Below, piece by piece: positions 4,894 to 32,965 of a stretch of DNA of 64,000 nucleotides. The stretch is from Balanoglossus misakiensis (Eukaryota > Animalia > Hemichordata). The position numbers and the translations under genes are program-made. The stretch is taken from NCBI GenBank assembly GCA_040954595.2, contig CM082584.2:13447337-13511336 (forward strand). Direction: 5' to 3'. The notes below the pieces were generated by a model. The model was not told the DNA's origin and did not search any database. It was given only the letters and a program-made list of their open reading frames with translations. Position 1 is the first letter of the stretch. Each line of letters starts with the position of its first letter.

Positions 4894-7800
4894 ATGGCGG
4901 TAATTTTGATTCGCCACGTTTGCAGTTTCCATCGCATCATCGTCGTCTGCTTCCTGCTGCTCAATGTTTTCCTATGTCGGTGCAATCTTAACAGTCCGTG
5001 CGAGGAAGACAGAAATGGGGTGATAGTTTACAACGCCTGTATGAGTCGGATGACATCGCTTAGTAACCTAGCCGCCGACATCACCGTGAGAGTTGACCCC
5101 GAGGATGCAACTTGTGGCATTTCATCATCAACAACGACGTGGTGTTCAATGGTGAGTTTTCCTGTTTTACATTACAAGTTACTACATTATTTTTTACGGA
5201 GGCTGGTTCGTTACACTTGTTAGGATCTTGTCGCTGACTTAATTTGCTTGTTTATAGTATACCGTTATATTTATTCGGAATATTATGATTCGGAAAATGA
5301 TGACCCGTATATTTTTTGAGGTCACCATGATTGTACAGATACGTACGTGTGTATTTGCTCTCTCGTGTTACGTGATCATGAATACACAGTGAGGTAAAAC
5401 TCGCATATGAAACTCGGGCTAAAAAAAGCCCAGTATATAAGTCGGTCAAACGAACAACCGGAATACGTGGCAAGGTTTAATTAATTTTAGCTAGTTATTC
5501 TAGTAGTAATTTATAAATTATAGGTTTTCTTTGGGAGCACTGCATCTCTGCATGTAGAGCCGACAGGTAGAGCTGACAGGGAGGCTTATGAGGTCTGAAA
5601 ACATAACAAATAGCTGCCAGCAGGCAGCCAGACTGTTTTCGTTCTGCGTCATTCAGATTTCATACATTTTTGTTCACATTTTAAGCCCTTTAAACCACAC
5701 ACAGATTGCAAATCTGCAGCTGTTGACTCATTTAACCATATTTTGTATAAACTGTTATTTTGTGTACAACAATGCTGAGACGCATCCAATATGACAGTAG
5801 ATTTATCAACATGTAAAGTCACACTTTTGTTGTTTATATTCACATGATAATAATTAAATATTAAAGACTCTTTAATATTTAATTATTATCATGTGAATAT
5901 AAACAAAGACATAGTTGTGTTCAACTTATTGTGAAAATGAAAATGACAGTTTTTGGCCTGAAGTACATGCAGCTGTTCATAGGATGGCATTGACCATTGC
6001 ATGAACTCATGGTGCAGAAAAATCAAACTGATGAGTAATCCTGGCATTAAATGACAATTTGTTCACACAATAATAGAAGTGGCAAAGACCTTTTGCAGCT
6101 GGTGTGGTTTATTTGGCTGGGCATGAACTGGCAACGGTCATGATCATGATATTGCAGTCACTGGTATGTTTCATCAGTGACAATTTCCTGTTTTTCTGAA
6201 TTCTCATTTCTCTTGTCTCATTTCCTGGGTCATTGGGAAGTGCACCTTCAGGCTTCAAGGCAATTGGAGCATGTGTGTTTATATTAATTTGTGAATGGAT
6301 ATATTATTAAATCAGGAGGTTATGTCATATCCAGTTGGTGACTGTTATTTGATTTGGAGAGGGACAGCGTCATAGAAATTTTATGAAAGGATCATTCCCA
6401 TTCATCTCTACTGTTTACTGTGATGTAAACATTTAGACACAATCTAATTATTATATCAGTGGCTGGCAGCTTTTTGACTGGCCTGTTTTTTAAGAATTTG
6501 CTAAAACTAGTTGATGGATTTGTTAATTGTGGATGAAATCTCAGGTAAACTGACTGGCAAAGATAATTGCAAGGCTGTGCTAGTGATTTTTGAGGGACAA
6601 CATTGCCATGGAACTCATGGATCGGACAAAATATGTACCTGTATTTTTAACTTATTTAGCATGTAACTGATGACCGCACAACAAATAATTACTGGTATCA
6701 TTCTTCAACTGAATTGATATGAACAATTAATGAAATAAACTGGCGAAATTAACAAGGGAATAATGACAGAAAATAGACGTGTATCGTTGGTTTGATAGTT
6801 AACTGCTGTGTTACATATTGTGGACTATCTGACAATTGATATTAAAACTGTTTGTCAGCTTACTATTCACAGTGCAAGAGGTTGTCTAAAAAGTTGTGAT
6901 ACTAATGGACGTTAATGGATCCACCCGATGTGTATCTGACTCATTGTCCCGTGATACACTTAGTATTGTCAGTTGTGTATTGTCCTACCAGCATGATGTC
7001 TGGTCACAACTGTTGTGATGGCCGCGGCCATGGTGGTGGCTGAATGGCACATCAATTCAGCTTGCTGGGCGACACACTGGCACATTCCATTATTCTAACA
7101 GGTGGTATTAAAGCTGTGTCTGGTCCCAGGATTGGATTAATTGTTAAAGAATTAGTGGTTGCATCAACTGTTACAATATCACACTGCTGACACACTGCAT
7201 GTATTGGCATTTAATGAACAATTTTCTGAACTGTTTGTTTGCTGTGTGAACCTGTACAAATTTACTGATTGATTGATTGATTGATGGAGAAAATTTTTAT
7301 TCTGCTGAAGTGATAGTCCTGCATGTAATTCAATACACTATTATTTAACTCTTTGTTTTAACTTCACTTGGAAAAAAACATGTCAGTGGTCACTGGGAAG
7401 TACTTTCAATGTAAAAATTTACAGCAACTCTTTCAACTAATTTTCTATTTTCCTCCTTTCTGCAGTTGTCTGCCACTTCCGAGTGTTATGTGTGTGCATC
7501 AGATGTGCCAGCTTATGCCCATCCTCCCCATCTCGTCATCGACCAAGAGCAGGAAGGGAGTCCGCCAACATTCTGGCAGTCGGTCACCTGGAACAACTAT
7601 CCCACTCCACTGGAAATCTCCCTCACTGTGTCCCTGGGAATCCAGTACGAACTCCATGATGATATCAAAATAACATTCCAGTCTGGACTTCCCAGGAAGA
7701 TGATCCTGGAAAAATCCTTGGATCACGGAGTGACTTGGAACACCCTACAGTACTACGCTACAGACTGCGAATCTGACTTCAACATGACTGCAGGTGTTAA

Positions 7801-8457
7801 TATAACCTCTCCGAGCCAAGTTGTCTGTACAGAAAGATATAGCCCTCTATTGATATCAAACTTTGGAGACAATGTTGAGTTCTCTATAAACGATCGATTT
7901 GCTCTCCTGGCTGGACCAGACAGCAACAATCTAGGCAATGTCTACTACCAACTAGAGACGAACAAAAGTTTCAGTGATTTCATTACATTGACAGATCTAC
8001 GCTTAAGACTCTTAACACCAGCGTATCGCACTGATGTCACTGACATACAGTCGCTAAATCAATATTATTATGCTATTTCCAACATAGCAATGCAGCTGAG
8101 GTGAGTATGTCCTTAATTCATGTCCAAACAAAAGATTTACAAACTAAATCTGTGGTGGCAGTCTCCACGGTGGCACGATTTGGCAAAAACCTCGAAAAAA
8201 GTAAAATAAACATGGTTGTGGCAATATCCTTGTTAATTTCAGGTGCAAATGTAACTTACATGGACAATATTGTCAAAATGTTGATGGTGAGATGACTTGT
8301 GTCTGCAAACACAACACTGAAGGAAGGCAGTGTGAACGGTGTCATCCAGATTATATGGTGGTACCATGGCAACCAGGCTCCTACTTACCTTATCCAGATG
8401 GCACAGTGAATGAATGTAAAAGTAAGTCATGCATCATCATCGTCATCCTCATCCTCC

Positions 8458-8502
<45 letters not shown>

Positions 8503-11500
8503 ACTCACTGGCTCATATACCGTAGGGGGAGCCCTTCTAAAGTTTAAAAAAAAATGTCATGGGCTGGTACAAATACACCATACCCTCCTATGAAGCCAGC
8601 TATTGGATGAGAGTCTGTGTATAATAAGCAATTCATTTGTGTGCTATTTTCTAACACGACTGGCATTTTCCATTTTGGGGTTCCACTACAAAATTGTTAG
8701 TAAATGAATTGGATTGAAATTATGAATTGTCATGCATGCTCTTGCTTGCATGGGCACTTCATTATTTGCATGAACCATGAACTCTAGTTGCACTTGAGTG
8801 AATGGATGACTGTGTGTGTACATTAGGTGCATGCTTGCTGATGCATAGGCAGGCATGATCACAGAATATAAATGAAATATAAATGAATAGAGTTTACTGC
8901 AGTACAGTGCACTTTGCTCTGCTATTCCTACTGACGTCTGTTGAATGAAATATGTTCTGTGCTTCTGTGGACAGCAGATGCTCGATAACATAGCATGTGA
9001 TATTGGCTCAAACAAATACAAGCCAAAATGACTAAGCATGATTTTTGGATTTTACTGTGGCTTGTGAATTTCGTTTACCCTGATATGTTCATTTGTGCAA
9101 TTAAGATACTCTAGAGTCCAATAAATGGTTCAAAACTCCCATACAACATTTATAAACTGTCGCATATTAATGAAGTTTTTGTGTTTGAAAATTAATATTC
9201 ATGGCCATCATATCTACGGCTTCTGAGAATGTTACCTTTAACATTTTCCAACATGACACACTTGTTCGTACATCCACAGATGTTCATATCTTACCATAAG
9301 GATTGTATTTTTATTTCCATATTTTCTTTCCATTAATGTGTCATGAGGTGATCTGACAATATAGCATCATTTTAATGACATATGTCCTTATACAGGCTGA
9401 AATTACCTCTGTAATTCAGTTCATCTTCTGCCGGCCATCATCTGTCAAACACTACCTTACAGTGTGAAATCATTCCAGCATAATCTTTGACACTAGTATG
9501 TGGTCCCTCCAGTCATTCACCTATGAATAACTCTTCTTCACTTCTGTGCTCAAGCTCCCCGTTCCAGTCATACTGACAATCACAGTCAGTCCTCTTCCAG
9601 CTATAACTCCCTCATATCTTACCTCCATCCCCGTTCTCCCCAAACCCCACATCATACCTGTCATCAAAGTCCCATGACCACCTCTCCCCATTGCACCTTC
9701 CACTAAACTTTGCCACCTTTTTTCTACGGTAGGGTCTTTGTGTCTGTGCTTAAATTAATACTGTATCGCACAGAATAGACTGACTGTGATTTGCAATCCT
9801 CAATCCGGAGTCTTAGCATTATATTTTCCATGTCAATTTCATAAGTTGGCTGTCAATAGTAGATAATTTAATTAAACTCATGTCAAATTACTGTCACTGT
9901 GTTGAACAAACACACAAAGCTAATCACTGGAAAGTGATTGACACTTTCTATTAATGACTATTAGGATTAATCCTTTGTTATTCTTTGATCACTTTATATT
10001 CTGTGCAGGACATTTGCACATGCAGTCTGAATTTCTTTAAATGGATCTGTGAACCAATCCTTGCATTAAGTAATTAAAACACATTTTATTAAGGTGTGAG
10101 CCAGAATGTGAGACTAATTTATGATTGTGAAGTTTACCCTATATGTTCCTAATGAAATCTGGAGAAACTCGCAGTTCATGGCCGCAAATGCGTACAAAAT
10201 GTTGCTTTGACGTCAGTATGTACGTATGCTGCATGAATGATGAGTAATCCTGCGCATGTGTGGGATTTAAAATAGCATTATGTTAAAGAGATGCTTCTTT
10301 TGTCATTCAGATACGAACGCGCGTTGTTATGCAAATGAACCGTCATTAATAAGAGAGAGTGGGCAACAATAGGTCACCTTTGTATCGGCTTGCAAATGAG
10401 GGTGGTTTGTGGATAGAATTCAAATTAAGTACGCCATGAATCAGTTGTTTACATGGACCTCGTCGAGTGTGGTTTGCAAGTCGTGTCCGAAATGGAGTAG
10501 CCAATGACATATCTCGCTCAAGTCTGGCCATTGCCTGTGACCTTCCTAGGATCGGTTCAAGTCATGTTATGGCGGTAACACCCCGTAGTGGTCTGTGAGA
10601 ACACCGACTTTTCCTATAGATGTATAGTTTCAGTATATTCCGCATGTGTGATGAAGCCTGTGGTCACTCGTGAATCCAATATGACGTTGTACATGATTGG
10701 TGTCCTGTTGCTGTTGGTGGTACCTCCCAACAACTCCCAGAATTTAACCAACGGTATGTGGCAGGTGTTTCTATTTATTTTCAAACTATCAGCTTCTGTG
10801 TGTTGGCTGTAGATAGGGGCGTCATGATCCAAAACAATTAACAAGTGAAAATGGCTCTTATATTGTATATATACCCCAAGTAAGATGTACAAGCAAGTAC
10901 AATTTTTACCGGTTTTGGGAATTGTCGTTTGGGTGTATGGACTAAGCCCTTACGTCAGTAAGTATCCACAGCATAGATCAACTATAGGACTCTGTAACTT
11001 CTTCAGTAGCTATTCTATACATCAAGCAACAGTTCAATACAAATATAGCTCACAGCAGATAACATTTGCTTTGAGACAGCTTACATCCCTCCGTAAGCAC
11101 ACATACACTTAATATATGTACATATACGTGTTCATGCCGTCGTAGTCTCATTCATTATTTCAGCAGGAAGTTAAGCGGTCTAGAGATCTGATGCTCAGGC
11201 AGGAAACTGAACATTCAGGTTTTAGACAGTTAATTACATTCTAATTTTGCCCCAAATGTGGTCATTAAAAATAAAAACCATTTTGTAATAAGCAAAGGTC
11301 ATAGTATGCCAGTATAAATGTCTCTGGATAAATTCCAATCAACGTACTGTGTTATCCAAGGGGTTTTAATTTTTATTTCAAGGTTAAATGAAATTTCGCT
11401 AATGGGTGAATTGTCTGGTTTGATCTTTGTTCGTTAATGCTGAACTGAGGTCATATTATATGTTTAATTGTTTCAGTGTAGAGAACACGCATATTGAGAG

Positions 11501-14500
11501 AGTATTGTGTGTGTGTTTCAGTTCACCTATGTACAAAGATGCATTTTTTATGTGGTCAAAGACATTGTAGTGCCTGCACATTATATTCTAGAGTTCATCT
11601 GATGGATGGACTGTATGTGGGTACATGCATGGTGCCAGTCTAAATTAAGTGTTAAATAAATAAGCTGAATCACTGACTGTGAGATGATATATGGCACACT
11701 TAATTTCATGAGATGTTTCAAATTGTATGATTATGAAAATCGTTTACTTCATGACCCAGATATTCCAGATGTGAAAATAGCCCTTTTTTTCATCATTTTC
11801 TTTTTAATGTTCAGTGTTAGAGAAATTCATTTGTCCTCTTTATCTACTGACTCAGATCATATAAGCAACATCTCCTGGTAAAACAGCCATGAGCTAGCTC
11901 TAAGCCTCTTTGTCAGGTAAATATGTTTAATTCCACAATGCTTCAGTAAGAAAGATCATTCCAAGACACACATTCGCAATGTGAAGCACCTCAAATGGCC
12001 TCCCTATCCTTATAGGTTACAACATTCATGCACCTGTTGTACTCTTGTTTGACAAAAAGGAACTGACCAATCAAAAACAACCTTACGAGACCCCTGCCCA
12101 CGCAAACGCTGTCATCGACAGGAAACAGATAGTGCACAATAATCTACTAGAACTTGAACTAGTGGAACGCTCTGATGGGTACCGTTTAGTTGATACAAGT
12201 GTACTCAACAGTTCATTAATATTCACACGTGTAAATTTAGATTTGATTTTGTGACATGTGTGGGCATAAATGCATCTGTAGGTGTGTCAAGCAATTTGAT
12301 AATGAGGTGTGGCAGATTTTTGTGTATTTATGGAAGCAAATATGATATGTCAGGTTTGAAGCTTAAATTGAATTTGTATGATGTCTATTGTGGACATTTT
12401 TGGCATAATGGAGAAAAGTTTAATAACTTATAAGAAAATGCTGCCTACCGGGTACATCATAAAACTTAACTTTTATGCCCCTTGGAGGAAATGTTCCAAA
12501 AATCATTCTACATACGTTTCAAAGGTGAAAAGAGAACCAAGAGGGTCATACAGATGTTTGCCAACTGTCAGCCATATGGCAACATGTAAATATTTTGTTG
12601 TTTCAATTCTGAAATTTACACAATTGCAACCGTACCATTCTCTTGCATGAAATTGATTCAATTGACTCAGTAACCTGAGTAAATTTCAAACACATATCTC
12701 CATGCCTTCAAACAACTATTTCTGCTTAGCCCGGGGTGACTAATGATATTCCTGATATTAAATAAAACTGACCAGGGATAAATCCCACTACTGTTTATTG
12801 CCGGTATAAGTTACTACATTAAGGACAAGTAACTAGGCTAGGTAACAAATTAGCATAGCCTTAGTTCAGTGCTGTACATCAGTGCCCATATCACAAACCT
12901 AATGTTCATTCTTGTCAACTAGGGTCAATGTCTGAGCCCTGAAAGCAATTATCTATCATGTGACCAAGCATTAAGTCACTTGATATCAAGAACATAGAAA
13001 CTGTCTAGTTGATTAATGAAAACTGACAAAGATGCAAAGGAAATTATCCATTCATATTTCTGTCTGGCTGCAGATACAATCAGTCAAAATTTATAATATT
13101 CTCCTGTCTGGGACATATGTGGTATGAAATAAAACATGTGTATTTTGATACTTCAGTCTAAAATATAAAAGATGCATTTTGGAATTAAATGCAAAGAAAA
13201 TTGATAAATAGAACTGCTTACATTTATCTGAATTTGTTCTTGAGTTATTGGGAATAACTCATATACCGTAAATGTATGCGTATCCAGTTTAATGATTTGT
13301 TTTGTGTACAGGGAATTGATTGTTTCCGTGGTAGCAATTATCATGTTATTGATACTTGTGGATTTCATTTAAACTTACATCAATTAATATTGCTTAACAG
13401 TACGTGATTGATGATGGTTTTCAAGATATGCTTACTGTGTTTTGCTATAGTTACAGGGGAACATTGGTAAATGACTGGGGAACCCTGGTCTTTTGGTGCA
13501 TACTCCTGGTAGCTGTCATTCTACCACTGCCCATACATTGCATCTATAAAGCCCAACACCAAAACCCCTGGCAAGAAACTATAGTCAGAAAACTACATGT
13601 TCACATCATTTCATGATCCATGCTTAGAAGTGACAAAGTGGCCATCTTCTGATATATTGCTTTTGACCGCTTTATCTTTCATTTCATCACATGGGTCTGT
13701 TAACAGTTACCATGAAAACAACAACAAATCAACAATTAATGCACAAAATAATTTCAAAAGATGCCAACTTTGTCTCTCTCACATGTTCTTCTCATGGTGG
13801 TGGTATGACCATCTCTTCAACTTTCTTTCTCTCTCTCTCTTTCTTTCTCCTCTTCCCCTTCTTGCAGAGTGCCAGTGTAATGCTCACTCCAATGTGTGTA
13901 GATACGATGCCAATTTGGATGAAGTCATCTGTATCTCTTGTCTTCATAATACTCACGGTCGTCATTGTGAACACTGTCTTCCTGGATTCAAACTTGATCC
14001 TTCCAAAGCACCAGATGACCCCGACATTTGCCCACCAGGTAAATATCGTGTACAAGTTTTTGGTAGATTCAACTTAAATATAAAATAGCAGGGATTTATA
14101 ACAAAAAAGATTAGTGTTTTTGGACAAAAATTGACTTCAAAGTACCAGTAAATACTGTGTAGCCCCTTCGACTATCAAGATTTGGTCCAAATATGACTGA
14201 ATCTTTTTCACGGCAAGTTTTGGTGTGTATAAAACAGCAACTAGCAATTTACAATATCCAACGTTCTTAAATTAATGTGTGAAGTTTGTCTCTTGAATAG
14301 TTCGAACATTACATTTCCTTTCATTGTTTGACATATTGCAGTTGGGAGACTGTGGGTGTGAGTGATGTTTTCAATGAGTAATATTTCTTGTGGGTGTGAA
14401 CTGTGTCTGAGATATTAATGCTTTTATGTGGATTTTAGTAATATACTGCCCACATATGTTGGTGATGTGTCCATTAAATAAAAATTAATGAATGCCACAA

Positions 14501-14759: not shown

Positions 14760-17700
14760 TAGATGAGATGAAGAGAGCAGTTGAGATGGAGTGGAGAAGT
14801 AAAGATTTAGTGGGCGAGTGAGAGAGAAAGAGAGAGAAGGCTTGATAGAGTGGGAGAGAGAGGAAATGTCTGTCCTACATATGCAGGACTACGTGCAGTG
14901 TGGGTTGCAAGGTTATTCAATTTAAGATATACCGTATACTGTAGATCTCCCTCAATGAAATAGAGCATTACTAGAATGAGCACCAAGTTTGAAATGTAAT
15001 TAATTTAAAGACCATTATAACTGTTTACTGTTGTATGAAAAACTATGTGTGCTTTAATAATAATATGGAAATGATAATTGATCAATCAGTGGAGAAAGTC
15101 TATTGGGAAATATCAGAACATAGTTATTGTATGGGTAGTCAGCTGTCATGTGATATGATATGACATACAACCTGAGTAGAGGCCCATAGTAGCCTTGTGT
15201 AACAGCTGAGATCAGTTCATGAATAAATTAAAGGGGAGTATCAATCTTTATGCAGCATAAAGTTATAAATATCTTTCAATTAATTGTTATTTCATGAGGG
15301 GTTTCAAATGAAAAAATGTATGTTTAATTGGGCTAGTGGTATTTTGCAAATGTTTGTACATATTTTATTGTAACTGATGTCCATGAGAAAAGGATTATAT
15401 TAAAATTCCACATCAGCTGCATGAGTAGTGAGATTAAAGGTCAGCCAAGGTTAAATGTTGTAGTTCAAAATGTTGATTTCTGGGAAAAGCAGCTGGATTG
15501 CATTGTCTCTTGAAAGAATTTGATGCAGACCAAAAAATGTTCTACATACAACGTATTAAGTAAACTATAATTCTTTTCTTAGTAAAGGAGTATGTGTATT
15601 TAATGGCTTTTTTGGCAAAACCAAGCAGGTCAGAAATGCATCAAGCATGATATGGTTATCTAATATGAATAAACATTAAGAATGCATTATGAAATTATAT
15701 CACATGAGAGAGCTCATCAACTAGATATGATGACCTAATATTTCTCATGGATCATGATGGCTACACTATGAATATTAATCAAGTCTTGGTGGCGAGCGAA
15801 GTCTGGAATTCACTCAAGTAAAACAATGATCATTGAAGCTGAAAAATTAAAAGTGATGTGCAGTAATGGTTCTTCTTTGGTGATTATTTGCCTGTTTGAA
15901 TTTTCTGTGAGAATTGCCTTCACTCGTTAAAGTGTTATTAGGTCATCAACTGAGTGTTAGCTCCAGGTTGATTGAATGATGAAGCTGAGACCAGACTGTC
16001 ATAAGCCTTGAAGTAATATAGGCTGAGTCTAGCTCATAGTGTATTGATGAGTATACAGTAGCGTTATAGTAATTTTTTCAGAATTATAAATTGGTTTTGT
16101 CACAAACATAGAATTGAAGTTAAAATGGGTTTTAATATAGGATTTGTAGCGACTTGAGGGATGACCATGTACAGTTGTTTAAATACGTTCCTTGTAAAAA
16201 TGCTTGTATCCCCGTATCATATACCAGTACATACATACATATTCAATACACTATACATCTTGGATTTCACAGTATCTGAATACCCGTATGAATACAGATT
16301 TCCTGCAAGTGGAGTACGTATCCCAGGTGGTGGTAGTATTAAAATTCAAATGCCAGGTATCCATTGTCTCTGTCATCTTGGTGTCTTTCTGATCGATGTA
16401 CATTTTATTTCATGTAAATATGTTGTAATTGTATCATAGATGTTCACTGTACAGTCGATGTGTTTGTGGCATAGTAGGTCTCGTTGCTTGTAACTTATCT
16501 TTGTGAGAATGACTAGGAATTTAAGTGTAGAACTTCCTAAAGATCAGAATAATTATTGCAGATGTTATTTTTCAGAATTTTATTTTTAATTCACATTTAT
16601 CACTGGCACATTTTTGATGATATGGATGTACATGTACATGACGTATTCTGTGAATGCATGCATGTATGCATTAAAGCACATCAAAGCAATTATATTGAAT
16701 GTTGCGTACCATCAGTGTTTTTGCTAAAGGTTCACCAAAGCATGGTGGGTAAATGTCTTGTGACTGATCTTTCAGCCGAGGGGGTAACAACATCTTAGGT
16801 CTGCAGGACTCATAGAGCCTTATCAAAAACACTGATGGACTTTTAATATATTAAGATTGAATCATCTTTGAGCACCGGATTAGAATAATGTTGCAGGAAC
16901 ATCTGCCCAACTTATTGCTTGAAACAACGAATTATGTTTTGTTAGATTTGCATGATTTGTCTTTTTTTTTGGGGGGGGGGGGGTTATTGTTCTCCTCAGA
17001 GATGATTTAAGAGCAATCTGTTAATCGATAGGTAAAACACTGCCCCATCCACTTTTCCAAAATTGATCAATCTACTGCTTACTTTCCACAGTTCTTTGTG
17101 AATATTTTGTGTAGTCTCACTGCCCTTAATGGATATTTGCTTCCTCTAAAGTTGGCCAACTTCTTCTGGGGAGAACAAGTTTTCCACTTTAATAATTGCA
17201 CTTAAGTAAATGTCTCTTTGCATATTGAGACTGGAATGACTGTATTGCATGCATTATATCTTTTTTTGTTGCATTCTGTTACAGATCAGTCTGTTTCCCC
17301 AACAATGAACAACTCCGATTTACTCGCACCAACCCTGTCACCAAGTATGCCGTTCAGCATGCCATCCTCACTTGCCGTGTCAGCGTCCAGTGCAAGTGGA
17401 CAGCTGCAACCAACTCCTGCACCTTCACTCTCTGTCTCCCTAGCAACGCAATCCCTTGATGTCTTGCCTGCATCACCAACACAACCCCTCCCTTCTGCAC
17501 CAGTTCTGACAAACTCTCCCAATGTAGTCCCATCCACTCAAGTGCCAGCTGTCACCCCTGCATCCACATTTAATCTGGTCCAAACTGCCAGCCCCACTCC
17601 AGATTCAAATTCAACCGCTCCTCCGACAGAATCACCGGATCCCTGTGACCCGAACCCTTGTCTGAATGGAGCAACCTGTATACGTAGTGGCTCTCAGTAT

Positions 17701-20700
17701 ACCTGCAATTGTTTACCAGGTTATGAGGGTAAGTTGAATCAATTTTGGTGAGAAAAAAAGTCCAACTGAATGCCGTACTGTATTGTAACAATTACATGAA
17801 GTGGTATCGTTGGTCGGAAGTAACACTGGAAAACCACAGGAAGAATTGGAAATCCTGGATTTTTGTGTAACTGGTGCAACCCGCAGACTTTTCTTTCAGA
17901 CATTCATGAACTTCTTTCTTCTTTGCAGGTTCACTTACAAATTGTTCTCTTAACATTGATGAGTGTGCATCTCAGCCCTGTGTAGAAGGTCTCATCTGTG
18001 TTGATGGCGTGGATGAGTATACATGTTTGACCCCAGGGCGAATCAATCCTTGTGATCCAAACCCATGCAAACAAGGAGGAGTGTGTGAAGTTGTTCCCAG
18101 TGCAGATTTTCTCTTCAGATGCAATTGTCCGCCAGGCTTTGAAGGTTAGATTAACATTTTACTTTAATGTGCGCTGTGAAAAAAAATTACATTACCAGTA
18201 CAGTATTATCAAGAAGATGTTCATTACAGTATAGGAATATACATGTGACTGGTTGGAATGTACAAATCTCAACACTCGGTTTTCATTTGAATTTTTTTTC
18301 CATATGTTCCACCTTTAGGACCGGATACAAGATGCAGATACGAAATTGATGAGTGTGCTACAGAACCTTGTCGAGCAGGATTGGTCTGCAAAGATGGCAT
18401 TAACTCGTACACCTGTGAGCCAGTAAGAGCACCTGATGAGGAGGATAATGATCTGGAAACTGTAGATGACACTGAATCTGGCCCTGTAAGTCATTATTCA
18501 CATGATTATCCTGTTTTCCAATGAAATCATCAATATCTGTTCATTTTCATCATAATCATAATCTTGTGATTTTTCAGAAACCTCTCTCACAGATGATGAT
18601 CATTGTCATCGCTGTGTGTTCTGCGGCCGTCGTGTTCTGTATCATCTGGACGGTATTCTTTGCCTGGTACACCATGCTGGATCGCTCGGGCAACCATGTC
18701 ATCAAACCGCCCAGGCTCAGTAACCCTCTGTCTCCCATGGCCAAGATTGTGGAGGAACAGAAGAAGAAGTTGAAAGAACAGAACCAGAATAATGCAATGC
18801 TTATAGAGAATGCTTCACTACAGGATCAGATGGGGGTAAGTTTTTTTGTCAGGCCAAGGTAGGGTAAATTTAGTAGTTGGTCACAGAGGCATGTAGAATA
18901 TATGTGAGTGTTGTACCGGTACATTTTTGTCGTGACCCGTTATCTATTTATAGCTTTGTTTGTAAAAGTACCTCTACATTCAGGCGTAGCGTGTCAAAAA
19001 TTGCAGGCGATTGAGTGATCGAGGCAGTCTGTGTCAGGTTCTAAGTGGTACCAGTTTGATGGTAGTTATTGATGGTAGTTATTGATTCGATGAGAATTTT
19101 ACAGTCACTGTACAGTTGTCTAGTTTGACTAGACATTATGGCTTCAGTTGTAGAGGTGAGATGCAATTGGGATTCATTTGGACTCATAAATAGGAATTCT
19201 GCGTGCATTTGTGTCTCGCCGTGTTTGTGTGTCTGCAGGCAAGTGTGTGCGTGTGTAAGAGTGATGTACTTTCTACCATTACCTGCATTTGTTACAGGTT
19301 AAAGTCTTCTCTGAAAACGTTTTATTTCTTCTCTCTACTTTCAGAAAAAATCCCAACGGGTGCCATTAATCCCTGACAGAAGCTCCTCAGTGAAAATGCA
19401 CGCCTTGAAGGCAAAATGGAATATTGAAGAGAAAAACCTGAAGTTGTCGCGACTTCTAGAAAATGGTGAATTCTGCTACATAAAGGAAGGGCAGTACGTC
19501 AGGAAAGACGAGTCCGAAGTCAAAGTGGCATGTAAAGTTCTAAAAGGTAATTTTGAAATTTGTCTGTGTGGACTCTGACAGATGTAGTCATCCAAGCCAT
19601 CAAAATTAAAATCTGCTATTCATGTTGACATTTTTTGATTGGGAGAAGCTTAGGTCTCACCTAGAAAGTTCACAATTTAAAGATTGATTTATGGAATGTT
19701 TCTTTCAGATCCCCGAAATGAGCAGGCAAACCGAGAATTACTGAACGAGTTTGAAATATTAGCACACTTGTTGCCTGATCCACGAGTTGTTGTCTTACAT
19801 GGACTTTGCAATCTTGCTCAAGAGAGAAACCAATTTTCAAGTAAGTTGGTTTTGTTTACTGTTGCAGCCTCTTAAAAATTCAGAGTATGCTAGAACCAGT
19901 TTCTAGAAGGTTCCATCAGTGCTGTTGAGGTTTGTTTACACACATTTGGGTTGCATGACAAATGACAGTCTGTCATGAATTCAAATTAAAAACAATCAAA
20001 ATCCTTCTCTGTGTTTTTCAGCTCAGTATTGTTTAGTGACAGAGTACGTCTCTAATGGAAGTTTATTGAGGTACATGAGAAGATGTCGGAGCAGGAAGAG
20101 AGATGAACCCCCACGGTATAATATTCCCCCAGCGGAACTTATGAATATTATTTGTGATGTTGCACTGGGGATGAAATTTTTGGTCACACAAAAGGTATGT
20201 GTTTTGGAAGTATCTTTGCAGACACTATGCAATTGCTAAGTTCAGGTTTAGTTTTATCAAAAACACTCTTTTTTAATCTCTTTGATATGATGATCTTTGA
20301 GGCTGGAGTATTGTTGTATTGTCATAGCGTTTTTGTACAATATGTATCAAGCTCATTTATCACACGACCATATTGTGAGTTGAAGTCCAACAGATGTTTT
20401 CCCAGATCGTCAAAATAGCCTGCTGACAGAACCATGCTTTGAAATGTTTTCATCGGACAAACAACATATTGAATTAGTAACAGGCTCTATACCAGTAGAA
20501 ATATTGGACTCTTTGTCCTGGAGTGTAAATGGTTTCTGGCTGAAATATTTTTTAATAATAAATTGGTAGCGCTATGTAAATGTTTGCGTTACTTTCATAC
20601 CAGTATGTGTAAATATTGACTAGATTTCTGTCATATATGTGGATACACAATTTTGACTCAATATTTGTGTAAAAATTGTAACATTCATGGCAACTATTTT

Positions 20701-22056
20701 TGTTTATTTTTCTCAAATGATACAAGTTTATTGTTCATCCAATGCTTATAGAAAGCTAAATGCTCACTTTATTTGATTTTTAACAAATTTTACCACCTAT
20801 CAGTTTGACTGCAGAGGACTGCTCAAAGTAACTGAATGTATATTTGATTACTTTACAGATTGTACATAGGAAACTAGCCGCTTCCAATGTTTTAATAACT
20901 TTCAATAACAGGGCAAAGATCTCTGACTTTGGCCTTGCAGCTGACATGTTTGAATTTGGAGATTTTGTTCGAACCAATGAACCAGTAAGGGTAAGTCACA
21001 AATTGTCTTTCATAGAATCCTGGAACTTTGTAGATTTTCTTTCTGAGATACTATTTCACATGAAAGTTGATTCAACCTAGGCCAAATCTGATGATCCCTT
21101 TGTACCAATACTCTGCTGCAGACATGGCCACTGTCTGTGCTGTACCCTGACTGACTATTAATCTTGATATTAGACAACAAGGTTCTTTAGGGGCTTACCT
21201 GACAGTAACTGCAACTTGTACCTCATTTGTAGCCTTCACTGAGAAGATGGCTGGCCTATGAGAGTTTACTGGATGGTGTCTTTAGTCACAAAAGTGATGT
21301 GTAAGTAACTCTCTTTCACATGATCACAGTCTTACAACAGAGTTTTTTTTAAATCACTTCTTTTATGAACTGCTGGATAAAAATATTATCTTCTGAGTGT
21401 GTACATTATCATGAGGGCGGTGCAGATAACAGTTGTTTTTTTTTCAATCTCTTTTGCCTCAGGTGGTCGTATGGTATATTACTTTGGGAAATCGCAACGC
21501 TTGGTAAGTGTATATTCTGTTTGATCTCCGTCCATGTTACAGGTACTGCATGTCATTCACATTGTTGTTTACCCTTCTTTCCATTTTAGAGTAAGGTGTA
21601 CAACAGAAACACATTCAGTCTATTCCATGTTTTTCCCTCTCAGGTTCCATTCCTTATCCCGGAATCAGTATGAAAAGATTGCCGGAAAAGCTAAAAGATC
21701 ATTACCGGATGGAGAAGCCCAAGCATGTTTCCCAGGAATATTACGATGCCATGCTGCGATGTTGGCACCGTAAACCGGAAAGCCGACCCACTTTTGATCT
21801 TCTTTGTAAAGAAATGAAAAAACTTCAAAAAATGGGAAAGGTAGGGCTTGCTGTTGTTTTTTTCCCACAAAGACCAGTGGCTTTCTGACTCAGTCATATT
21901 CTATTGATCATGTAGCTGGGAAACTGCATGGAAATGACCATTATTTTTCTTTTTTCTTCGCAGACCCATATCTCTTTAAAAGATTACACTTTTGTACACT
22001 ATTACAGCCTCAGGCCGACGCCCGACAGTGAAGATGAAGATGACTCATTTGTTTAA
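4894..22056 (+). CDS. Netrin-G-like (LN-LE-LE)/mucin/EGF transmembrane receptor tyrosine pseudokinase, 16 exons
   Basis: Exons 4894-5151 (signal peptide, LN start), 7466-8100 (LN), 8243-8421 (LE1), 13868-14038 (LE2), 17285-17728 (S/T/P stalk + EGF), 17929-18144, 18319-18485 (EGFs), 18578-18835 (TM), 19345-19546, 19709-19840, 20022-20194, 20859-20990, 21233-21300, 21463-21503, 21644-21840, 21964-22056 (kinase and tail). All GT-AG and phase-compatible. Netrin-G motifs: TFWQSVTW, MILEKSLDHGVTW..QYYATDC, RCKCNLH, WQPGSYLPYPDGTVNEC. Kinase motifs: VACK, HRKLAASN, KISDFGLA, RWLAYESL, SDVWSYGILLWEIATLG. Confidence 0.8.
5830..5906. repeat. Perfect inverted repeat, 38-bp arms with 1-nt spacer
   Basis: ttgtttatattcacatgataataattaaatattaaaga-c-tctttaatatttaattattatcatgtgaatataaacaa; the arms are exact reverse complements. 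Confidence 0.95.
8431..8501. repeat. (CAT)n microsatellite, imperfect at the 5' end
   Basis: Direct reading; lies just after the LE1 exon donor. Confidence 0.9.
10681..10753 (+). CDS. Candidate alternative first (signal-peptide) exon within intron 3 of the Netrin-G-like receptor
   Basis: ATG-initiated MTLYMIGVLLLLVVPPNNSQNLTN followed by G|GTATGT phase-1 donor, matching the phase-1 acceptors at 13868 and 17285. CpG dinucleotides are noticeably more frequent just upstream. Confidence 0.55.
14702..14755. repeat. (GA)n microsatellite
   Basis: Direct reading, followed by degenerate purine-rich sequence to about 14862. Confidence 0.9.
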
Positions 22057-25187: not shown

Positions 25188-28100
25188 ATGGAGGCTAAAA
25201 AAGAAACTAAAGAAGATGAAGGGGACAGAAAACCAGAGGCGGCAACTGCCACTGCAGAACCTACATCCAGTTCAAGCAAAAGTTCAGCATTTGCAAAAAG
25301 TGGTTTTGATGAAGAAAAAATTAGTGCTGCTCTGAGTGCGTCACAGGATCTTGACAGAAAATGTGAGTATAGTTACTTTTTTCCGACTCCAGGTTAAATG
25401 TTCAAGGCAGAGGAATCACGATAGTGTATTTCTCTATCGTCACCTGTGTAACTCTGTATATGTAGCAGTGTGTGTGTATGTGTCTGTTGTGAACAGCATC
25501 TGGCCTATATTACACTCAGAATTGTTTGTTCATGTGTGTGTGTGTGTGTTTGTTTGTTTTTTTGTTTGTTTATTTATCAGATAATCACATGTCACCAACT
25601 AAATGTTCATGAATCGATCTCATTGACATCGCTAGGGCAGGAAATGCAAGACAAAATGAAACAACTGACTGTGCTGATGGCCAAAAACATGCAGGCAATG
25701 CTTGGGGGAGCTGTTCCGATCAGCGAAGAAGACAAGAAGCAAGTACTGGATGAGCTTACTCTGGAAGGAGTTGTCAAGTACATCAAAGATGGCAAATGTG
25801 AGAACATGTATAGAATATACTTTGAAAGTGTCTTAACATATTGATTGGTCACTCACCTGGGCTTAATGTGAACACTGTATGTATAAACAATGTCCCTGAA
25901 GACACACCATTCCTCCTGGCAAGATTTCAAGGATTAAATTGTTGTACAAAAATATACTTCTTTTTATCAAATTATTGATTTTCTTTTATTATCATTTTTT
26001 TAAATAGGTAAGAACATAATAACTATGGCTGGAGCTGGCATATCCACAGGTGAGAGGGAATTTCATGGACTGCTTCATTTCAAGCATTTATAATCATAGA
26101 CAGAGTTCATGTTTGTCAACAGTACTAGAGAAGATAGCTGTACAGATAATACACAATGTATTGTTAGGTGATGGATTTAAAACGCATACAGTGGTAATTT
26201 CTCAGAATTATAATTGCACATGCTTGAGTGTTTCATCTGTTAACATTTCAGCTGCGGGTATTCCTGATTTCCGAAGTCCCGGCACTGGTCTGTACAATAA
26301 ACTGGAAGAATATAATCTGCCTTCACCACAGAGCTTGTTTGACATCAACTACTTCAAGGTACACTTATCTACAAATAGAAAATGTTATACTGCAACAATC
26401 ACAGACTCTTTGTTATATTCTGGGTCATATTGAATTCATTGTTTCTGACAGAAAATGACATGTTTGTTTTGTGACATGTTTCCAGAAAAATCCAGAGCCG
26501 TTCTTCAAGATCAGAGTGAGAGAGTTTTACATGAAAGTTGGAGAGTACAAGCCGACACTCAGCCATTATTTTATTCGCCTGCTTGCTGAAGAAGGCTTGT
26601 TGCTAAGGCATTACACACAGGTAACAAGGGTTCTTTTTCCTCTTGTATTTATTCAATATTTTCCCTTAATTTTGGACCAACATTCATTCATTATTCATTC
26701 ATTCTTTCAGAATATTGACACTCTCGATAAGAAGGCTGGTATTCCTGAGGACAAGACAGTATTGGCACATGGATCTTTTGAAACTTGGCACTGTCTTGGT
26801 GAAGATTGCAAGACGTCTTATTCACTGGACTGGATCAAGAGTGAGTGTTTGACAATTTTTAGCAAAGATGTTCCTCTGTATGTGTGTTAGAGGTCACCCA
26901 AGGGTACTGTAAATCTTGGTGGATCACTGCTACCTCTATGTCAAGTTGGTCTTAGCTTTATGAATGCAATGCACAGCATTAATATTGCAGCACACAAAGT
27001 AAACTCCTATGGATATCTGTGCATGTATTGGGCATAACCAAGAAGTTTGTAAATTGATAAGTTGTACTTGTCAAACATTAATTTGATTTTCAATCATGTT
27101 CTATTATCAGAGGAGGTGAAAGCTGACAAGATCCCAAAATGTACAAAATGTGGCATTGTTATCAAACCAGGTGAGTCAGAGACCCACCTTTGCTTAAGGT
27201 GTGGCACTGCAGTTTCCATGGCAATTCTGGCCAAATGTTGACTAAAACTCTTTTTGTTTATCGATGTTAAACCAATATGAGAAGGGTTGCAACAAGAGTG
27301 TCAATCACTCCAACAAATCAAGCAGTAAAAATCAATCGATCAATCATTTCTGTTGCAGGCATTGTGATGTTTGGTGAAGCTTTGCCGGAAAGATTCAGGG
27401 AACTATCTAATGAGGTTTGTGTCTTGCTTTAAGTATTACAGTCAGTTTGTCTGCTCAGTGAAACATTGGAAGGCTCCATAGATGCCATGCTGGATTGCAC
27501 AGCGCTCTCATCCATAGATGACCTATTTTGGGTCTTGACTCCATTGCCATAGAGTAGTCTTCCCCCACTTGTTGATGCATACTGACACTACAATAGACCA
27601 AACGATGATGATGAGAGTGAAATCATAATGAATAACCCGACATTCTTATCTTCTTTTATGAATGACTGTGTGACTTCACTTTCAGGATTTTGAACAATGT
27701 GATCTGTTGATAATCATTGGCACATCTCTGGCTGTTCAACCATTTGCTTCACTTGTTAACAGGTATGTGGCAGTTTTCATTTCAAAATGATTTGAATTTG
27801 ACATCACAACACTGAGATAAAAGGATTACAGTATCACAGCTGATGTTGATATTATCTGAGCAGTGTCTATTGGTTGCCATGAGGTTTATATTTTTATTCC
27901 ATGCGATAATAGCATTATAGTTTACAGATATGTCATTGATAAAAGCAAAAGCTGAGAAGGCTCTAGAAAGCAAATTTAAAGAAAATCTTTTCCCTCTTTC
28001 CCATTTCAGGGTACCAGTGTCTACTCCAAGACTTCTCATAAACCGGGACAAACCTTCTGCCACTCAAGTGAGTACTGTCAATCATTTCCACACATAACAC

Positions 28101-29146: not shown

Positions 29147-32101
29147 TCAGACAACCTTTTGTTCATCAGAAACACTTCCTTCATTGTGATTCACTTCTTC
29201 ATCACCATGGAGACATGTTTCATTGTTACTTATATCTGACCCATCATTGGCACGCAGATGCTGTGTTTCAGGCACGACATCACTTTTGATGCTGTCAAGT
29301 TCATACGAGGAAAGATCAGCTTTTTTCTTGTCAAGGCACCGCTGAACTTCAGCTGGTAGAATAGACAATACAGCACACACAAAATAAATGACTGCAACCA
29401 AATAGAATCCTGTAACATAGTCCCCTTGGATGTCCCGTAGCCAACCTGGCGAGAAAGAAAGAAACAAAATAATCAAAATTACAACTTATGTCCCTTAAAT
29501 GGTATAATGTCCAGCTTCTGGTAATTTCATTTTCATATTAGACTCAATGACATTTTGACAATTGTATACCATCATGATTATATACTCACCTACAAATGGT
29601 GACATGAGTATGGCGCCTAGGCCCTGTAACTGCATGAACATCGAGAGACCAGAGTCATATTTTTCAGGCCCCAGAAAGAAGAACAAAACTACAGGAAACA
29701 TAGGGATGTAACAAGCAATACCAAAACCAAACAGAATCATGTACGTCAACTGACCTGAAATGATACAAAATAATGTCACTTAAATAGCTCTTCCATTACA
29801 TCAAATCCATTTATTAAGCTCATCTTTTTTGTCACAAGTTTTATCTTCTGGTGTCTTCATAATTTTAATATGCACAGTATGCTTAAATGTTTGATGAACA
29901 TCAAAAGAGAGTTTACAGTAGAATGTTTACTGTATGAAAACACATGCACCTTGGCCCCTTCCCAAGATATCAAATGGATCACACTTGTAGTGGATATACA
30001 ATGTATTTCAGAAGTTGTCTGATGACTGAAAAAAAATGAAGAAAATTTCTCTGGTTTCAAATGTGTAGTGTTGTTTAATCTGTGAACCAACCTGCAAAGG
30101 TCTTTGTGTAAATGCTGATCAGAGTAGCCACTCCACAAAGTCCCATACTGAAACCATAGAAGTAGTAGGGCTTTAACTTCTTGAAGCGTTCTCCAAGGAT
30201 GCCCCAGAATATTCTACCAATACACTGGGTCAGGCCTGTTACTGCTGGAAGACTTGAACTTTCAATGGCTGATAGGCCGAAATCTCTAGCTCTCTTTACC
30301 TGTGGGTTAAAACATTTCATATTCTGTGTGATGCACATGTTTATTTGCTTGATGAATGGATTGATATCTATGGTATGTAATAACAAGACAAGTCCATTCT
30401 GCATTTCACTTGAAAAAAAAATATGTTGTCTCTATTGCTGAAACCAACATAATTGGCTCACCACATGAGTGAAAACTGTGTAGTGTCCAGCTCCTTGGCC
30501 AAGCGATGTCAACAAAAATAACAACACCACAGTGTCGCGAAGCACATTTATGTCATAAATCATTGTGAAATATTTCTTCACTTTGGCAGTAGCATAAGAA
30601 ATATATCCTCCACATGTATAACAGCAAGTATTTTCTTGGCTTTTGCTGTAGCTAATCTCATTCTTCTCAACTTTGGAAGAATCAATGTTTTCTGGTCTGC
30701 CTGTTGTGTTCTCCCTCATTTCCGAAGTTTCATTGAGTTCTTGACTTTTCAGTGGAAGTTTAGGGTTCCCTTCATTGTGGAGTTCTGTCAGCTCTGAAGG
30801 ATCTGCTTCCAGTGGTCTCAAGAGGGCGCCACCCACACAAATGTTGAGAGTCAATCCAGCCAAGAGAAGGAGTGTTCCTCGCCAACCATATGTGTTTAGC
30901 AGTATTTGTATACCAACAGAGAAAATAAATTGTCCAAACCCTGCGCCAGACAAAGCGATTCCCATAGCCAGTGACAGTCGCTTCTTGAAGTACTTTGAAA
31001 CCATGGTTACCACAAGAAATGGGAGAGTCCAGTAACACAAACCTGTCAAATTTGAAATGTATAATGTCATGATTATGGCTTTATATCAAGAATGGCTTGT
31101 TCTGTATCTGAGGGTTGAAACAATCAGAATCACTGAAAATTGTAGGGCTTTTCTTGAGCTTTTCTGCAAGCTTTATATGTATCCTAAAGTGTCAACAGTG
31201 AGACTGCCCCCGTGTGCAAAATATGGACAAAATTGCTCCGTGAACTAACTGTGCTTCCAAGCAGACAATTGATGGTTGCACATGTAATAATTTCATATTT
31301 ATTTTTAGAATGTTGCTCTTGTACAGAAACTGCTGCATCATGTTTTACGCATGTTAAGACGGGCATGATTTGGTTTTCTGATCAAAACCTGCGTGTGTCA
31401 CAAAAATAAACATGGGTTCATCCATCATATGTGTCAAAGCACCTCAAAGGGCAATGAGAAAGTTGCAACTCTGGGATAACTTTGCTGATTAGCTGCATCC
31501 TAATGCATGGTTGCCATGGACACCCATGCAGTAAGGGTATAATACAGGGCCAGAACTTACTTGCCATAAAGCCATAGGTAAATGCAATTTGCTGAATGTT
31601 AGTTGTAAATGAGCTTAGAATCATCGATATTGCAGCCCCAATGCCAGCACCAATCACTACTCTGCGATGACCGAACTTGCTACAAAGTGGCAATGCAAAT
31701 GCATGTCCCAAGATGGCAAAACCAGCAAACAACGATCCAACCAGAGCTGTGGGTATAAGAAAAGTTTGTTCATTCATGGTGCCTTTACAGTGTCTTTATC
31801 TTTTGCATAACTTCAAACACATGTGATAGATATAGGACGTAGGTCCGGGTGTTATTAGATTCGAAGGTTATAGGCCTAGATTAGCTACAACGAGGGTCCC
31901 CCCCCCTCCGAGGCCCACACCCCCTTCCCCCAGATTACCTGTATCAGCCTTCGAACCTCCAAATGCGTCGAGGAGGGCGACGAACAACACTCCGAATGAG
32001 TAGCTCGTCCCGCCGACAATTGTGAAGATAACAAAACCAGCCAGGACGATGACCCAGCCATACCCTCCATCGGGTGGAGTGGTCTTGAGTCGGGTCCCCA
32101 T
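29147..32101 (-). CDS. Monocarboxylate transporter (SLC16/MCT family, MFS), 6 exons
   Basis: N-terminal PPDGGYGWVIV signature of SLC16, then YFKKRLSLAMGIALSGAGFG, YGWRGTLLLLAG, large central loop and C-terminal GWLRDIQGDY. Approximate exons 32101-31939, 31747-31561, 31042-30461, 30300-30092, 29754-29590, 29445-29147. Confidence 0.9.
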
Positions 32102-32965
32102 ATCGAAATGGACAGGGAGGGATGTGTTCGTTTCAAATCGGCTCTGGGCGCTGCAGCTGGAGCTACTATGTCATCGGAGACACTACACTGACTGACGATG
32201 ATAGACTCTCACTCTCCATAGCCCCTGCTCAAAAAACCTGGGCAGCTGTGCGATCGAGACCCCGGAAATAGAGTGCCCTCGGGGTCGTGTGTGTCTGTTT
32301 ATAACCTTCCCTTTAATATTTCCCGTCATGCAATCGCGAACTTTTCGTCTTTTGGTGCTCATGCTATCCAGAGCAGCGATGTTTTGGAATGCTGATTTTC
32401 CCATTGAAATTGATGACATTCATTGCAACTTCTTTATAATCATAACTTTTTTTTATTGATCAAAGTAATATTTTACACCAAAGATCTATAGGCCTAAGGG
32501 ACTGGTCAGTTTCTTCAGCCTGGGAGGGGGAGTGGATTAATGGGGGGCCACCCTGTTTAATTGGGTGATGGGGGTCACCTTGTTTTGGAAATGCTGAATG
32601 AGGGACTAATAATTGCTTTTGAGTCCACAAACATGCAAGTTTCGAGCTCTTTATATTTCTAACGTGGGTGGGGACACGTCAGGTCTTACGATCACTTTAC
32701 CAGAATAAGTTTCCGCTGTTCGCAAATCTACGCATCCGCGTTTTGTCTGGTGTTTGCCGACTTTATCAGCGAACAAGATGGCTTGAATCTGTCAACAGTC
32801 ACTGAGACCATTGGCAGCCGATGCAGCAAAGAATAGGCTACTGTCCACATTAGCATATGACAGGTCAAGGTGCGAGGCCAGTCTTTTTGTCCCAGTGTTT
32901 GTCAAGCATCTTACGAAAAGTTCAGTCTATCAGGCGAGTGGTGCCTGGAAACAGGAGTGACCAAC

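Follow-up and report, generated by a model that had tools for sequence, protein, structure and literature searches.

The DNA analysed here, a stretch of 64,000 nt from contig CM082584.2 of the hemichordate Balanoglossus misakiensis (assembly GCA_040954595.2; hereafter the window, in which all coordinates are given), carries on its forward strand a receptor gene that spans 17 kb and is collinear from an ATG at 4894 to a TAA stop at 22056. In order, the gene encodes a signal-peptide-like start, a LamN domain, two laminin-EGF modules, a Ser/Thr/Pro-rich linker, three EGF-like modules, a 26-residue hydrophobic segment, a juxtamembrane region and a kinase domain. The layout of a single-pass type I receptor kinase is therefore present in one gene, the signal peptide and the transmembrane segment being putative, as read from hydrophobicity. 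We consider, with good confidence, that the kinase part (19345-22056, forward strand) is the cytoplasmic tyrosine-kinase-fold domain of a single-pass netrin-G-like receptor, that it lacks the catalytic Asp here and in its relatives and is predicted to be catalytically dead, and that it likely serves as a conserved non-catalytic signalling module.

Gene structure and motif states of the kinase domain

Upstream of the kinase, the gene model was built with tblastn using the closest database protein, from Ptychodera flava, together with splice donors and Pfam matches on open reading frames (ORFs). Laminin_N matches the ORF at 7415-8101 (E 3e-39), laminin-type EGF domains match those at 8205-8522 and 13585-14085, and EGF domains those at 17206-17748 and 17910-18146. 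Four exon-bearing ORFs match PK_Tyr_Ser-Thr (PF07714; E 3e-07, 3e-10, 2e-03 and 5e-13) and cover positions 70-123, 117-178, 187-205 and 200-257 of that profile, which isoform X1 of the P. flava protein covers over positions 1-257 (E 1e-69). On the minus strand across the gene, none of the 32 ORFs of at least 62 aa has a Pfam match at E <= 1e-4.

The kinase part consists of eight exons, and all seven introns between them are of the GT..AG type. The spliced frame of 1038 nt comprises 345 codons plus TAA and contains no internal stop. The original prediction, made from the letters of the window, had described seven clean exons (19345-21840) with VACK and DFG retained and the C-lobe intact; all of these are there, and an eighth exon (21964-22056) adds the tail and the stop codon.

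The catalytic loop reads HRKLAASN (20865-20888), where the AAA codon at 20871-20873 places Lys at the position of the HRD Asp, and the Gly-rich loop reads LLENGEFCYI (19453-19482), which is ExGxxC in place of GxGxxG and keeps one Gly of three. Both motifs stand as they had first been read. The beta3 Lys (VACK, 19525-19536), the alphaC Glu, the catalytic-loop Asn and DFG (20925-20933) are kept, and the activation segment crosses the junction of exons 4 and 5. By sequence, a kinase fold counts as a pseudokinase once any of three residues is missing, namely beta3 Lys, HRD Asp or DFG Asp; the window has Lys for the HRD Asp, and the proposal that this is a pseudokinase agrees with that definition. 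By function, a pseudokinase is one devoid of phosphotransfer, which is the state predicted here.

Eight related sequences were identified, from P. flava, Glandiceps talaboti, Saccoglossus kowalevskii, Apostichopus japonicus, Antedon mediterranea, Acanthaster planci, Lytechinus and Holothuria leucospilota, which with the window make up the family of nine considered below. These were compared with 49 other receptor kinases in an alignment of 58 rows. The catalytic position is occupied by Lys in the four hemichordates, by Ala and Arg in the two sea cucumbers and by Asn in the crinoid, the starfish and the urchin, and by Asp in none of the nine. Since the catalytic Asp is absent from the window and from all relatives examined, the domain is predicted to be catalytically dead. 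In that alignment the HRD Asp is found in 49/49 non-family rows and 0/9 family rows, the first loop Gly likewise in 49/49 and 0/9, and the third loop Gly in 48/49 and 0/9; the Arg of AAR (49/49 against 3/9), the DFG Gly (49/49 against 4/9) and the second activation-loop Tyr (49/49 against 4/9) have been lost from part of the family. The beta3 Lys, the alphaC Glu, the catalytic-loop Asn, the Asp and Phe of DFG and the Glu of APE are retained in all nine, and 78 of the 345 window residues are invariant across the members. Because the losses of the Asp and of the first and third Gly are common to hemichordates and echinoderms, all three most likely arose once, before the split of these phyla. Hemichordates and echinoderms separated more than 500 million years ago.

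The activation loop behaves differently. Phe had been noted where receptor kinases carry an autophosphorylated Tyr, and this holds for the window and for P. flava; it does not hold as a feature of the family, of which four members keep the second Tyr. As Tyr persists at the first site in Glandiceps and Saccoglossus, Phe is a later and variable change.

Two Tyr in the tail and a terminal FV are retained in all nine sequences, and Ser or Thr stands at -2 from the C-terminus in eight. Class I PDZ ligands have the C-terminal consensus S/T-x-hydrophobic. The window ends in SFV and agrees with it, which makes the C-terminus a candidate PDZ ligand by sequence. The kinase insert encoded by exon 3 contains a basic stretch, RRCRSRKRD (20055-20085), which is near-identical in all nine members and absent from three outgroup kinases; it could be a site for a basophilic kinase, a docking motif or a localisation motif.

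Relatives, selection and reads

A query with the HRK exon returned two candidates, both isoforms of one "uncharacterized protein" of P. flava and both 100% identical over the exon. That the window gene is a paralogue of the P. flava gene is unlikely, as only one P. flava gene in the collection has the HRK exon. The kinase part as query matched 1098 proteins at E <= 1e-10 among 3608 candidates. Compared with P. flava, the top matches were Glandiceps talaboti (80% identity), Saccoglossus kowalevskii (75%) and Apostichopus japonicus (47%), all having Laminin_N and kinase domains, and the next were ordinary receptor kinases at 30-39% identity. Four further members, from Antedon mediterranea, Acanthaster planci, Lytechinus and Holothuria leucospilota, came from an exhaustive search in which 1.84 billion cluster representatives were covered; NCBI names them "uncharacterized", "fibroblast growth factor receptor 3-like" or "Netrin-G1". 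The receptor architecture was seen in seven orthologue models; that of Lytechinus, of 581 aa, is without LamN. Outside the family, Pfam found LamN together with a kinase in none of 24 proteins, namely the Lingula protein P0014 and 23 multi-domain candidates taken from the 150 best hits of the exhaustive search. As far as examined, the architecture is confined to hemichordates and echinoderms, and the family is an uncharacterised, ambulacrarian-wide group of receptor pseudokinases with a netrin-G-like ectodomain. A second protein of Apostichopus japonicus (P0204, 917 aa) carries HYR and FN3 domains and no kinase behind a LamN that hardly differs from the LamN of the kinase-bearing protein (branch lengths 0.05 and 0.02); an alternative transcript, a recent duplication or a wrongly joined model may account for it.

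In a kinase tree of 37 rows the family forms one clade, with a support of 99 in the Shimodaira-Hasegawa-like approximate likelihood-ratio test (SH-aLRT). Its sister is a Lingula kinase labelled "FGFR3-like" (P0014), which keeps HRD (SH-aLRT 98), and the pair is sister to a five-row group with three Tie-like kinases of Asterias (SH-aLRT 97); FGFR, RET, PDGFR/VEGFR and torso are more distant. We modeled the kinase part of P. flava, which is 92.5% identical to that of the window, by AlphaFold2 with the 58-row alignment, and obtained a mean predicted local distance difference test score (pLDDT) of 90.0 and a predicted template modelling score of 0.90. The best match of this model in the PDB by Foldseek is RET (5amn; E 9.5e-30, template modelling score of the target 0.91, root-mean-square deviation 2.5 A, 35% identity), with RET and FGFR on top; a PDB search by sequence gave RET (3e-56) and FGFR3 (2e-50). 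The predicted fold is that of a canonical receptor-kinase domain; structure prediction had been proposed at the outset as a check. A full-length model of P. flava isoform X4, made by AlphaFold2 with a 10-row alignment, had a mean pLDDT of 47 and was not used.

Neither FGFR nor Tie is a suitable home for the family. Although Tie, RET and FGFR are its closest kinases in sequence and fold (RET and FGFR at 35% identity, target scores 0.90-0.91), they have their own HRD, GxGxxG and activation-loop Tyr, and their Ig, FN3 or cadherin ectodomains are absent from the family, in which Pfam finds Laminin_N, laminin-EGF and EGF only. Against membership in the FGFR family stand the absence of an Ig domain and the position of the clade with Lingula and Tie-like kinases and not with the FGFRs of Branchiostoma or Planococcus. 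The label "FGFR3-like" that NCBI attaches to some models is contradicted by both the tree and the ectodomain. Against the Tie family stand the absence of Ig, of FN3 and of the catalytic Asp, the clade lying beside, and not within, the group that contains the Tie-like kinases.

Compared region by region, no part of the protein evolves more slowly than the kinase domain. Between the window and P. flava the identity is 64% at the N-terminus, 69% in LamN, 74 and 67% in the laminin-EGF modules, 46% in the mucin-like linker, 64 and 66% in the EGF modules, 87% in the transmembrane and juxtamembrane region and 92.5% in the kinase. More distant pairs rank the regions alike: P. flava and Saccoglossus share 55% in LamN and 75% in the kinase, P. 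flava and Apostichopus 39% and 47%. Terminal branches of the hemichordates in the kinase tree are 0.03-0.14 substitutions per site long, where the median is 0.4.

Variation in the public reads points in the same direction. Three runs (X1, X2 and X3) were used, all from one sample. The 40 listed variant places of the kinase part comprise 11 exonic and 29 intronic ones; 20 were classified individually and the other 20 (20220-20503) fall in intron 3 by coordinate. Among those listed, ten exonic variants are synonymous and one is non-synonymous (Ala to Thr; n=11). At least ten synonymous changes among 11 would be expected with a probability of 1.6e-6 when every single change is given the same likelihood, and of 1.7e-4 for transitions only. 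The complete list for the LamN exon has 15 exonic variants, seven synonymous and eight non-synonymous (Fisher test against the kinase, P = 0.036). These comparisons indicate that the predicted dead kinase domain is under purifying selection stronger than that on the ligand-binding head, as the earlier suggestion of selection on the fold would have it. A strongly diverged second allele occurs in the sample, both in intron 3 (20183-20439, 257 nt with 17 differences and 26 gap letters) and in the LamN exon (7466-7614; ten differences in 149 nt, with six of nine listed being non-synonymous), and reflects either very high heterozygosity here or a close paralogue.

Genomic contigs of runs X1 and X2 span the Lys codon and list no variant at it. 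In run X3, a contig of 399 nt joins 20192 to 20857, 20989 to 21232, 21300 to 21463 and 21502 to 21643, all GT..AG, and has no difference over the entire HRK exon; its junctions match four predicted introns exactly. Because the Lys codon lies in contigs of all three runs, HRK is not an assembly artefact, and because the contig of run X3 shows the same four junctions, exons 3 to 7 are correctly joined in the splice model. A return of HRD in orthologues or reads would have spoken against a pseudokinase; none of the nine sequences has it and no contig of the three runs varies at the codon. The listed contigs of run X3 sit on exons and its depth is nil within the long intron 3, so that run X3 is probably cDNA. 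The receptor gene is intact and very probably transcribed.

Features of the gene are collected in Table 1. Right after the exon for the first laminin-EGF module, an ATC-type trinucleotide run occupies the start of the intron (about 8425-8500) and appears as poly-Ile in ORF 8205-8522.

Table 1. Exons and encoded features of the receptor gene in the window, with the evidence for each
Feature	Coordinates	Strand	Evidence
Exon 1: start codon and hydrophobic signal-peptide-like N-terminus	4894..5151	+	tblastn with P. flava isoform X1 (P0121), 64% identity; donor GTGAGT follows
LamN domain exon	7466..8100	+	Pfam Laminin_N E 3.3e-39; best PDB netrin-G2 E 4e-55, netrin-G1 E 1e-52; 69% identity to P. 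flava
Laminin-type EGF 1 exon	8243..8421	+	Pfam EGF_laminin E 1.4e-08
Laminin-type EGF 2 exon, a cassette exon among P. flava isoforms	13868..14038	+	Pfam EGF_LMN_ATRN E 1.9e-10; absent in P. flava isoforms X2 and X4
Ser/Thr/Pro-rich mucin-like linker and EGF 1	17285..17728	+	Pfam EGF E 1.2e-10; 46% identity to P. flava
EGF exon, two EGF-like modules	17929..18144	+	Pfam EGF E 3.1e-08; tblastn
EGF-like module and acidic stalk	18319..18485	+	tblastn, 66% identity; cysteine pattern by eye; no Pfam match at E <= 0.01
Putative transmembrane segment and juxtamembrane region	18578..18835	+	26-residue uncharged hydrophobic run, then basic residues; 87% identity to P. flava
Kinase exon 1: N-lobe, degenerate Gly loop 19453-19482, VACK 19525-19536	19345..19546	+	Spliced translation
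Kinase exon 2: alphaC helix, conserved Glu codon 19747-19749	19709..19840	+	Translation, alignment
Kinase exon 3: hinge, basic kinase insert, alphaE	20022..20194	+	Pfam PK_Tyr_Ser-Thr E 3.2e-07; junction 20192>20857 in contig of run X3
Kinase exon 4: HRKLAASN 20865-20888, DFG 20925-20933, start of activation segment	20859..20990	+	Pfam E 2.9e-10; 100% identity to P. flava; 0 differences in spliced contig of run X3
Kinase exon 5: end of activation segment, AYE instead of APE	21233..21300	+	Spliced junctions of run X3
Kinase exon 6: alphaF (DVWSYG)	21463..21503	+	Spliced junctions of run X3
Kinase exon 7: C-lobe, alphaG to alphaI	21644..21840	+	Pfam PK_Tyr_Ser-Thr E 5.3e-13
Exon 8: conserved tail, two invariant Tyr (21982-22011), C-terminal SFV (22045-22053), stop TAA	21964..22056	+	Translation, family alignment

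Other genes also lie in the window. A receptor-type tyrosine phosphatase gene (49087-63000, forward strand) has Ig and FN3 domains, two phosphatase domains and four Sushi exons. The translations of two of its Sushi-exon ORFs (49520-49729 and 49941-50150) are identical and suggest a very recent tandem exon duplication. An uninterrupted ORF of 448 aa (32861-34204, forward strand) encodes an SMP-30/gluconolactonase/LRE-like domain (E 1e-29), and this SMP-30-type gene is apparently intronless amid an intron-rich region. Pfam further identified a fragment of a histone-fold NF-Y-like protein (1386-2050, +), Sir2 family exons (26023-26887, +), a Major Facilitator transporter (30435-31085, -) and CUB and LDL-receptor class A exons (37823-38532, +).

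Possible functions of the kinase fold

What would a receptor do with such a domain? Since the ATP- and metal-contacting residues and the Lys-Glu pair are invariant and the residues for chemistry and substrate are gone, either nucleotide binding or a defined conformation is probable. With the beta3 Lys, the alphaC Glu, the catalytic-loop Asn and the DFG Asp all in place, the pocket would probably bind nucleotide, or else an active-like conformation would be read by partners, as in HER3. The two invariant tail Tyr and the S/T-F-V end make phosphorylation in trans and PDZ scaffolding the likely outputs: the tyrosines would probably be phosphorylated by another kinase, and the C-terminal S/T-x-V would probably act as a PDZ ligand. 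Specificity for a ligand, a cell contact or the matrix would come from the head of LamN and laminin-EGF. Both ATP binding and scaffolding are inferred from sequence.

The human receptor pseudokinases provide a frame for this proposal. HER3/ErbB3 resembles the family in being a receptor of tyrosine-kinase fold whose HRD Asp is replaced (HRN) with the beta3 Lys and DFG kept, and it acts as an allosteric or scaffolding partner (PMC13259870). It differs in having an intact GxGxxG and His for the alphaC Glu, where the family has ExGxxC and keeps the Glu. The HER3 ectodomain is unrelated to that of the family, which stands beside Tie-like kinases in a tree that has no rows of the EGFR family. PTK7, RYK, ROR1/2, EphB6, EphA10 and STYK1 are likewise single-pass receptors with an impaired but conserved kinase fold and scaffolding or co-receptor signalling; PTK7, RYK, ROR and STYK1, however, keep the Asp (HKD) and have an altered DFG, and EphB6 and EphA10 have lost the beta3 Lys and the DFG Asp (PMC13259870). 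None of the eight human receptor pseudokinases tabulated (Table 2) combines HRK, DFG and ExGxxC, and HER3 (HRN, VCIK, DFG, accessible pocket) comes nearest (PMC13259870).

Several points weigh against a dead, nucleotide-binding module as described. The structural model is that of the domain of the P. flava orthologue and not of the window's own protein. The DFG Gly is present in just four of the nine family rows of the 58-row alignment and in five of nine in the nine-sequence comparison, and the echinoderm members have a bulky Phe, Tyr or Arg at the first Gly position. Loss of two of three loop Gly together with a bulky residue could occlude the pocket, which would argue against ATP binding. 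The replacement of the Asp differs between the phyla, and hence there is no evident shared role for the replacing residue. As HER3 (HRN) is reported, in a paper cited by PMC13259870, to bind ATP and to autophosphorylate weakly, "dead" may mean "very weak". Run X3 is labelled "DNA?", and its spliced contig could be a retrocopy instead of cDNA. The kinase variant list holds 40 of 75 places, with a single sample behind all three runs.

Some of these points bear on a scaffold that binds no nucleotide, with a pocket occluded as in ROR, PTK7 and RYK and with the Lys-Glu pair and the DFG Asp kept for stability of the fold alone. The degenerate Gly loop is the main argument for such a scaffold, one Gly of three being left in all nine members, and the bulky or charged residue at the first Gly and the loss of the DFG Gly in five of nine rows add to it, as does the occlusion of the pocket in four human receptor pseudokinases that retain the Lys and the Glu (PMC13259870, Table 2). 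Yet the occluded human receptors keep the Asp of HKD and alter DFG, and the family does the reverse, like HER3 with its accessible pocket (PMC13259870); the adenine-contact positions (the Ala of VAxK and the Val or Ile after the loop) are also mostly retained. We regard an occluded scaffold as unlikely, though it deserves serious consideration. A weak or atypical kinase, transferring phosphate without the HRD Asp either at a low, HER3-like level or through a compensating residue, appears improbable. It would account for the invariance of the beta3 Lys, the alphaC Glu, the catalytic-loop Asn and the DFG Asp in all nine members, three of which, from echinoderms, read xxN like HER3, whose HRN domain is reported to be able to bind ATP and autophosphorylate (in a paper cited by PMC13259870). 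However, the position of the catalytic base varies among Lys, Ala, Arg and Asn and is acidic in none, no conserved acidic residue occurs elsewhere in the catalytic loop, the AAR Arg, specific to tyrosine kinases, is lost in six of nine and two loop Gly in all nine, and the activation-loop Tyr is not conserved.

That several motifs are degenerate together might also be taken as a sign of a decaying lineage-specific duplicate, a nascent pseudogene, or an artefact of assembly or sequencing at the HRD codon; the window protein is moreover absent from the protein collection, where its counterpart is the RefSeq protein of P. flava at 92.5% identity in the kinase and 69% in LamN. This explanation is hardly credible in view of 345 codons without a stop or frameshift, canonical splice sites throughout, HRK in all four hemichordate sequences with the Asp missing from all five echinoderm ones, a kinase that is the most conserved region with ten synonymous variants listed against one non-synonymous, and a Lys codon present in contigs from each of the three runs, that of run X3 being spliced. 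We prefer to read the domain as a conserved non-catalytic signalling module, and the evidence as a whole points to an ancient, selected receptor pseudokinase.

The netrin-G-like ectodomain and its meaning

The head of the receptor resembles netrin-G. The LamN and first laminin-EGF of P. flava have netrin-G1 (chain 3zyj_B, E 2e-83) as best PDB match, followed by netrin-G2 (E 3e-80), and the LamN exon of the window matches netrin-G2 (4e-55) far above netrin-1 (7e-17) and laminin beta-1 (6e-12); a LamN plus laminin-EGF of netrin-G type is thus present. The P. flava head is about 46% identical to mammalian netrin-G1, above its echinoderm orthologues (39%), and its named top matches are rat netrin-G1 and human and fish netrin-G2; a laminin-like protein of Antedon is nearly as similar (44%). 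In a LamN tree of 43 rows the ambulacrarian clade (SH-aLRT 94) neighbours the netrin-G clade (97). The root of this tree was chosen by us on four long laminin-like proteins, with a weak split support of 63 and no external root, so that the tree is compatible with either netrin-G or laminin-beta/gamma-like proteins as the sister of the clade.

Netrin-G1 and netrin-G2 (laminets) and the family are alike in head sequence and in being tethered to the membrane. It is also typical of netrin-Gs that their LamN domain binds NGL/LRRC4 partners. Netrin-Gs are anchored by glycosylphosphatidylinositol and have no cytoplasmic domain (PMC10084454), whereas in the family the head is followed by EGF repeats, a putative transmembrane helix and a kinase fold. 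The receptor is accordingly not a netrin-G proper: in place of a lipid anchor without transmembrane or cytoplasmic part it has a putative transmembrane segment and a cytoplasmic kinase fold of 345 residues. Netrin-Gs have been described as "only found in chordates" (PMC10084454), netrin-G has been called exclusive to vertebrates (PMC4706652), and Table 1 of PMC3516229 scores netrin-G as absent in Hemichordata and Echinodermata and nests it within laminin-beta/gamma-like proteins.

The P. flava orthologue has five NCBI isoforms (proteins P0121, P0002, P0123, P0001 and P0122), which skip the exon for laminin-EGF 2, the mucin-like exon, or both (window counterparts 13868-14038 and 17285-17728); isoform X5 has an alternative N-terminus without LamN. 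The isoforms thus vary by cassette exons just behind the first laminin-EGF. Similar cassette splicing after the first laminin-EGF is known for vertebrate netrin-G.

One could imagine that the deuterostome ancestor of netrin-G was a transmembrane receptor with a Tie-related, already dead kinase, that hemichordates and echinoderms keep this form, and that chordates swapped the transmembrane and pseudokinase part for a lipid anchor. This scenario is speculative and, as it stands, we think it quite doubtful. If it were true, netrin-G would not have started out as a lipid-anchored adhesion protein of chordates alone, and the family would represent a new class of receptor pseudokinases and, at the same time, the netrin-G that had been missing outside chordates.

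Among the literature matches listed, no receptor kinase or pseudokinase with a laminin-N or netrin-G-type ectodomain is described, and PMC8662651 makes no mention of laminin, Saccoglossus, echinoderm or hemichordate. Known receptor pseudokinases have been described mainly from vertebrate families, and the present family departs from them both in its ectodomain (LamN, laminin-EGF and EGF) and in its pattern of losses. We know of no human receptor pseudokinase among PTK7, RYK, ROR1/2, EphB6, EphA10 and STYK1 that has a Laminin_N ectodomain.

A predicted dead domain that evolves more slowly than the ligand-binding head in front of it provides a natural test for the kinase features that non-catalytic signalling requires. 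The occurrence of a netrin-G-like head on a receptor of hemichordates and echinoderms makes the origin of netrin-G directly testable, and Saccoglossus and sea urchins offer tractable embryos in which this could be done.

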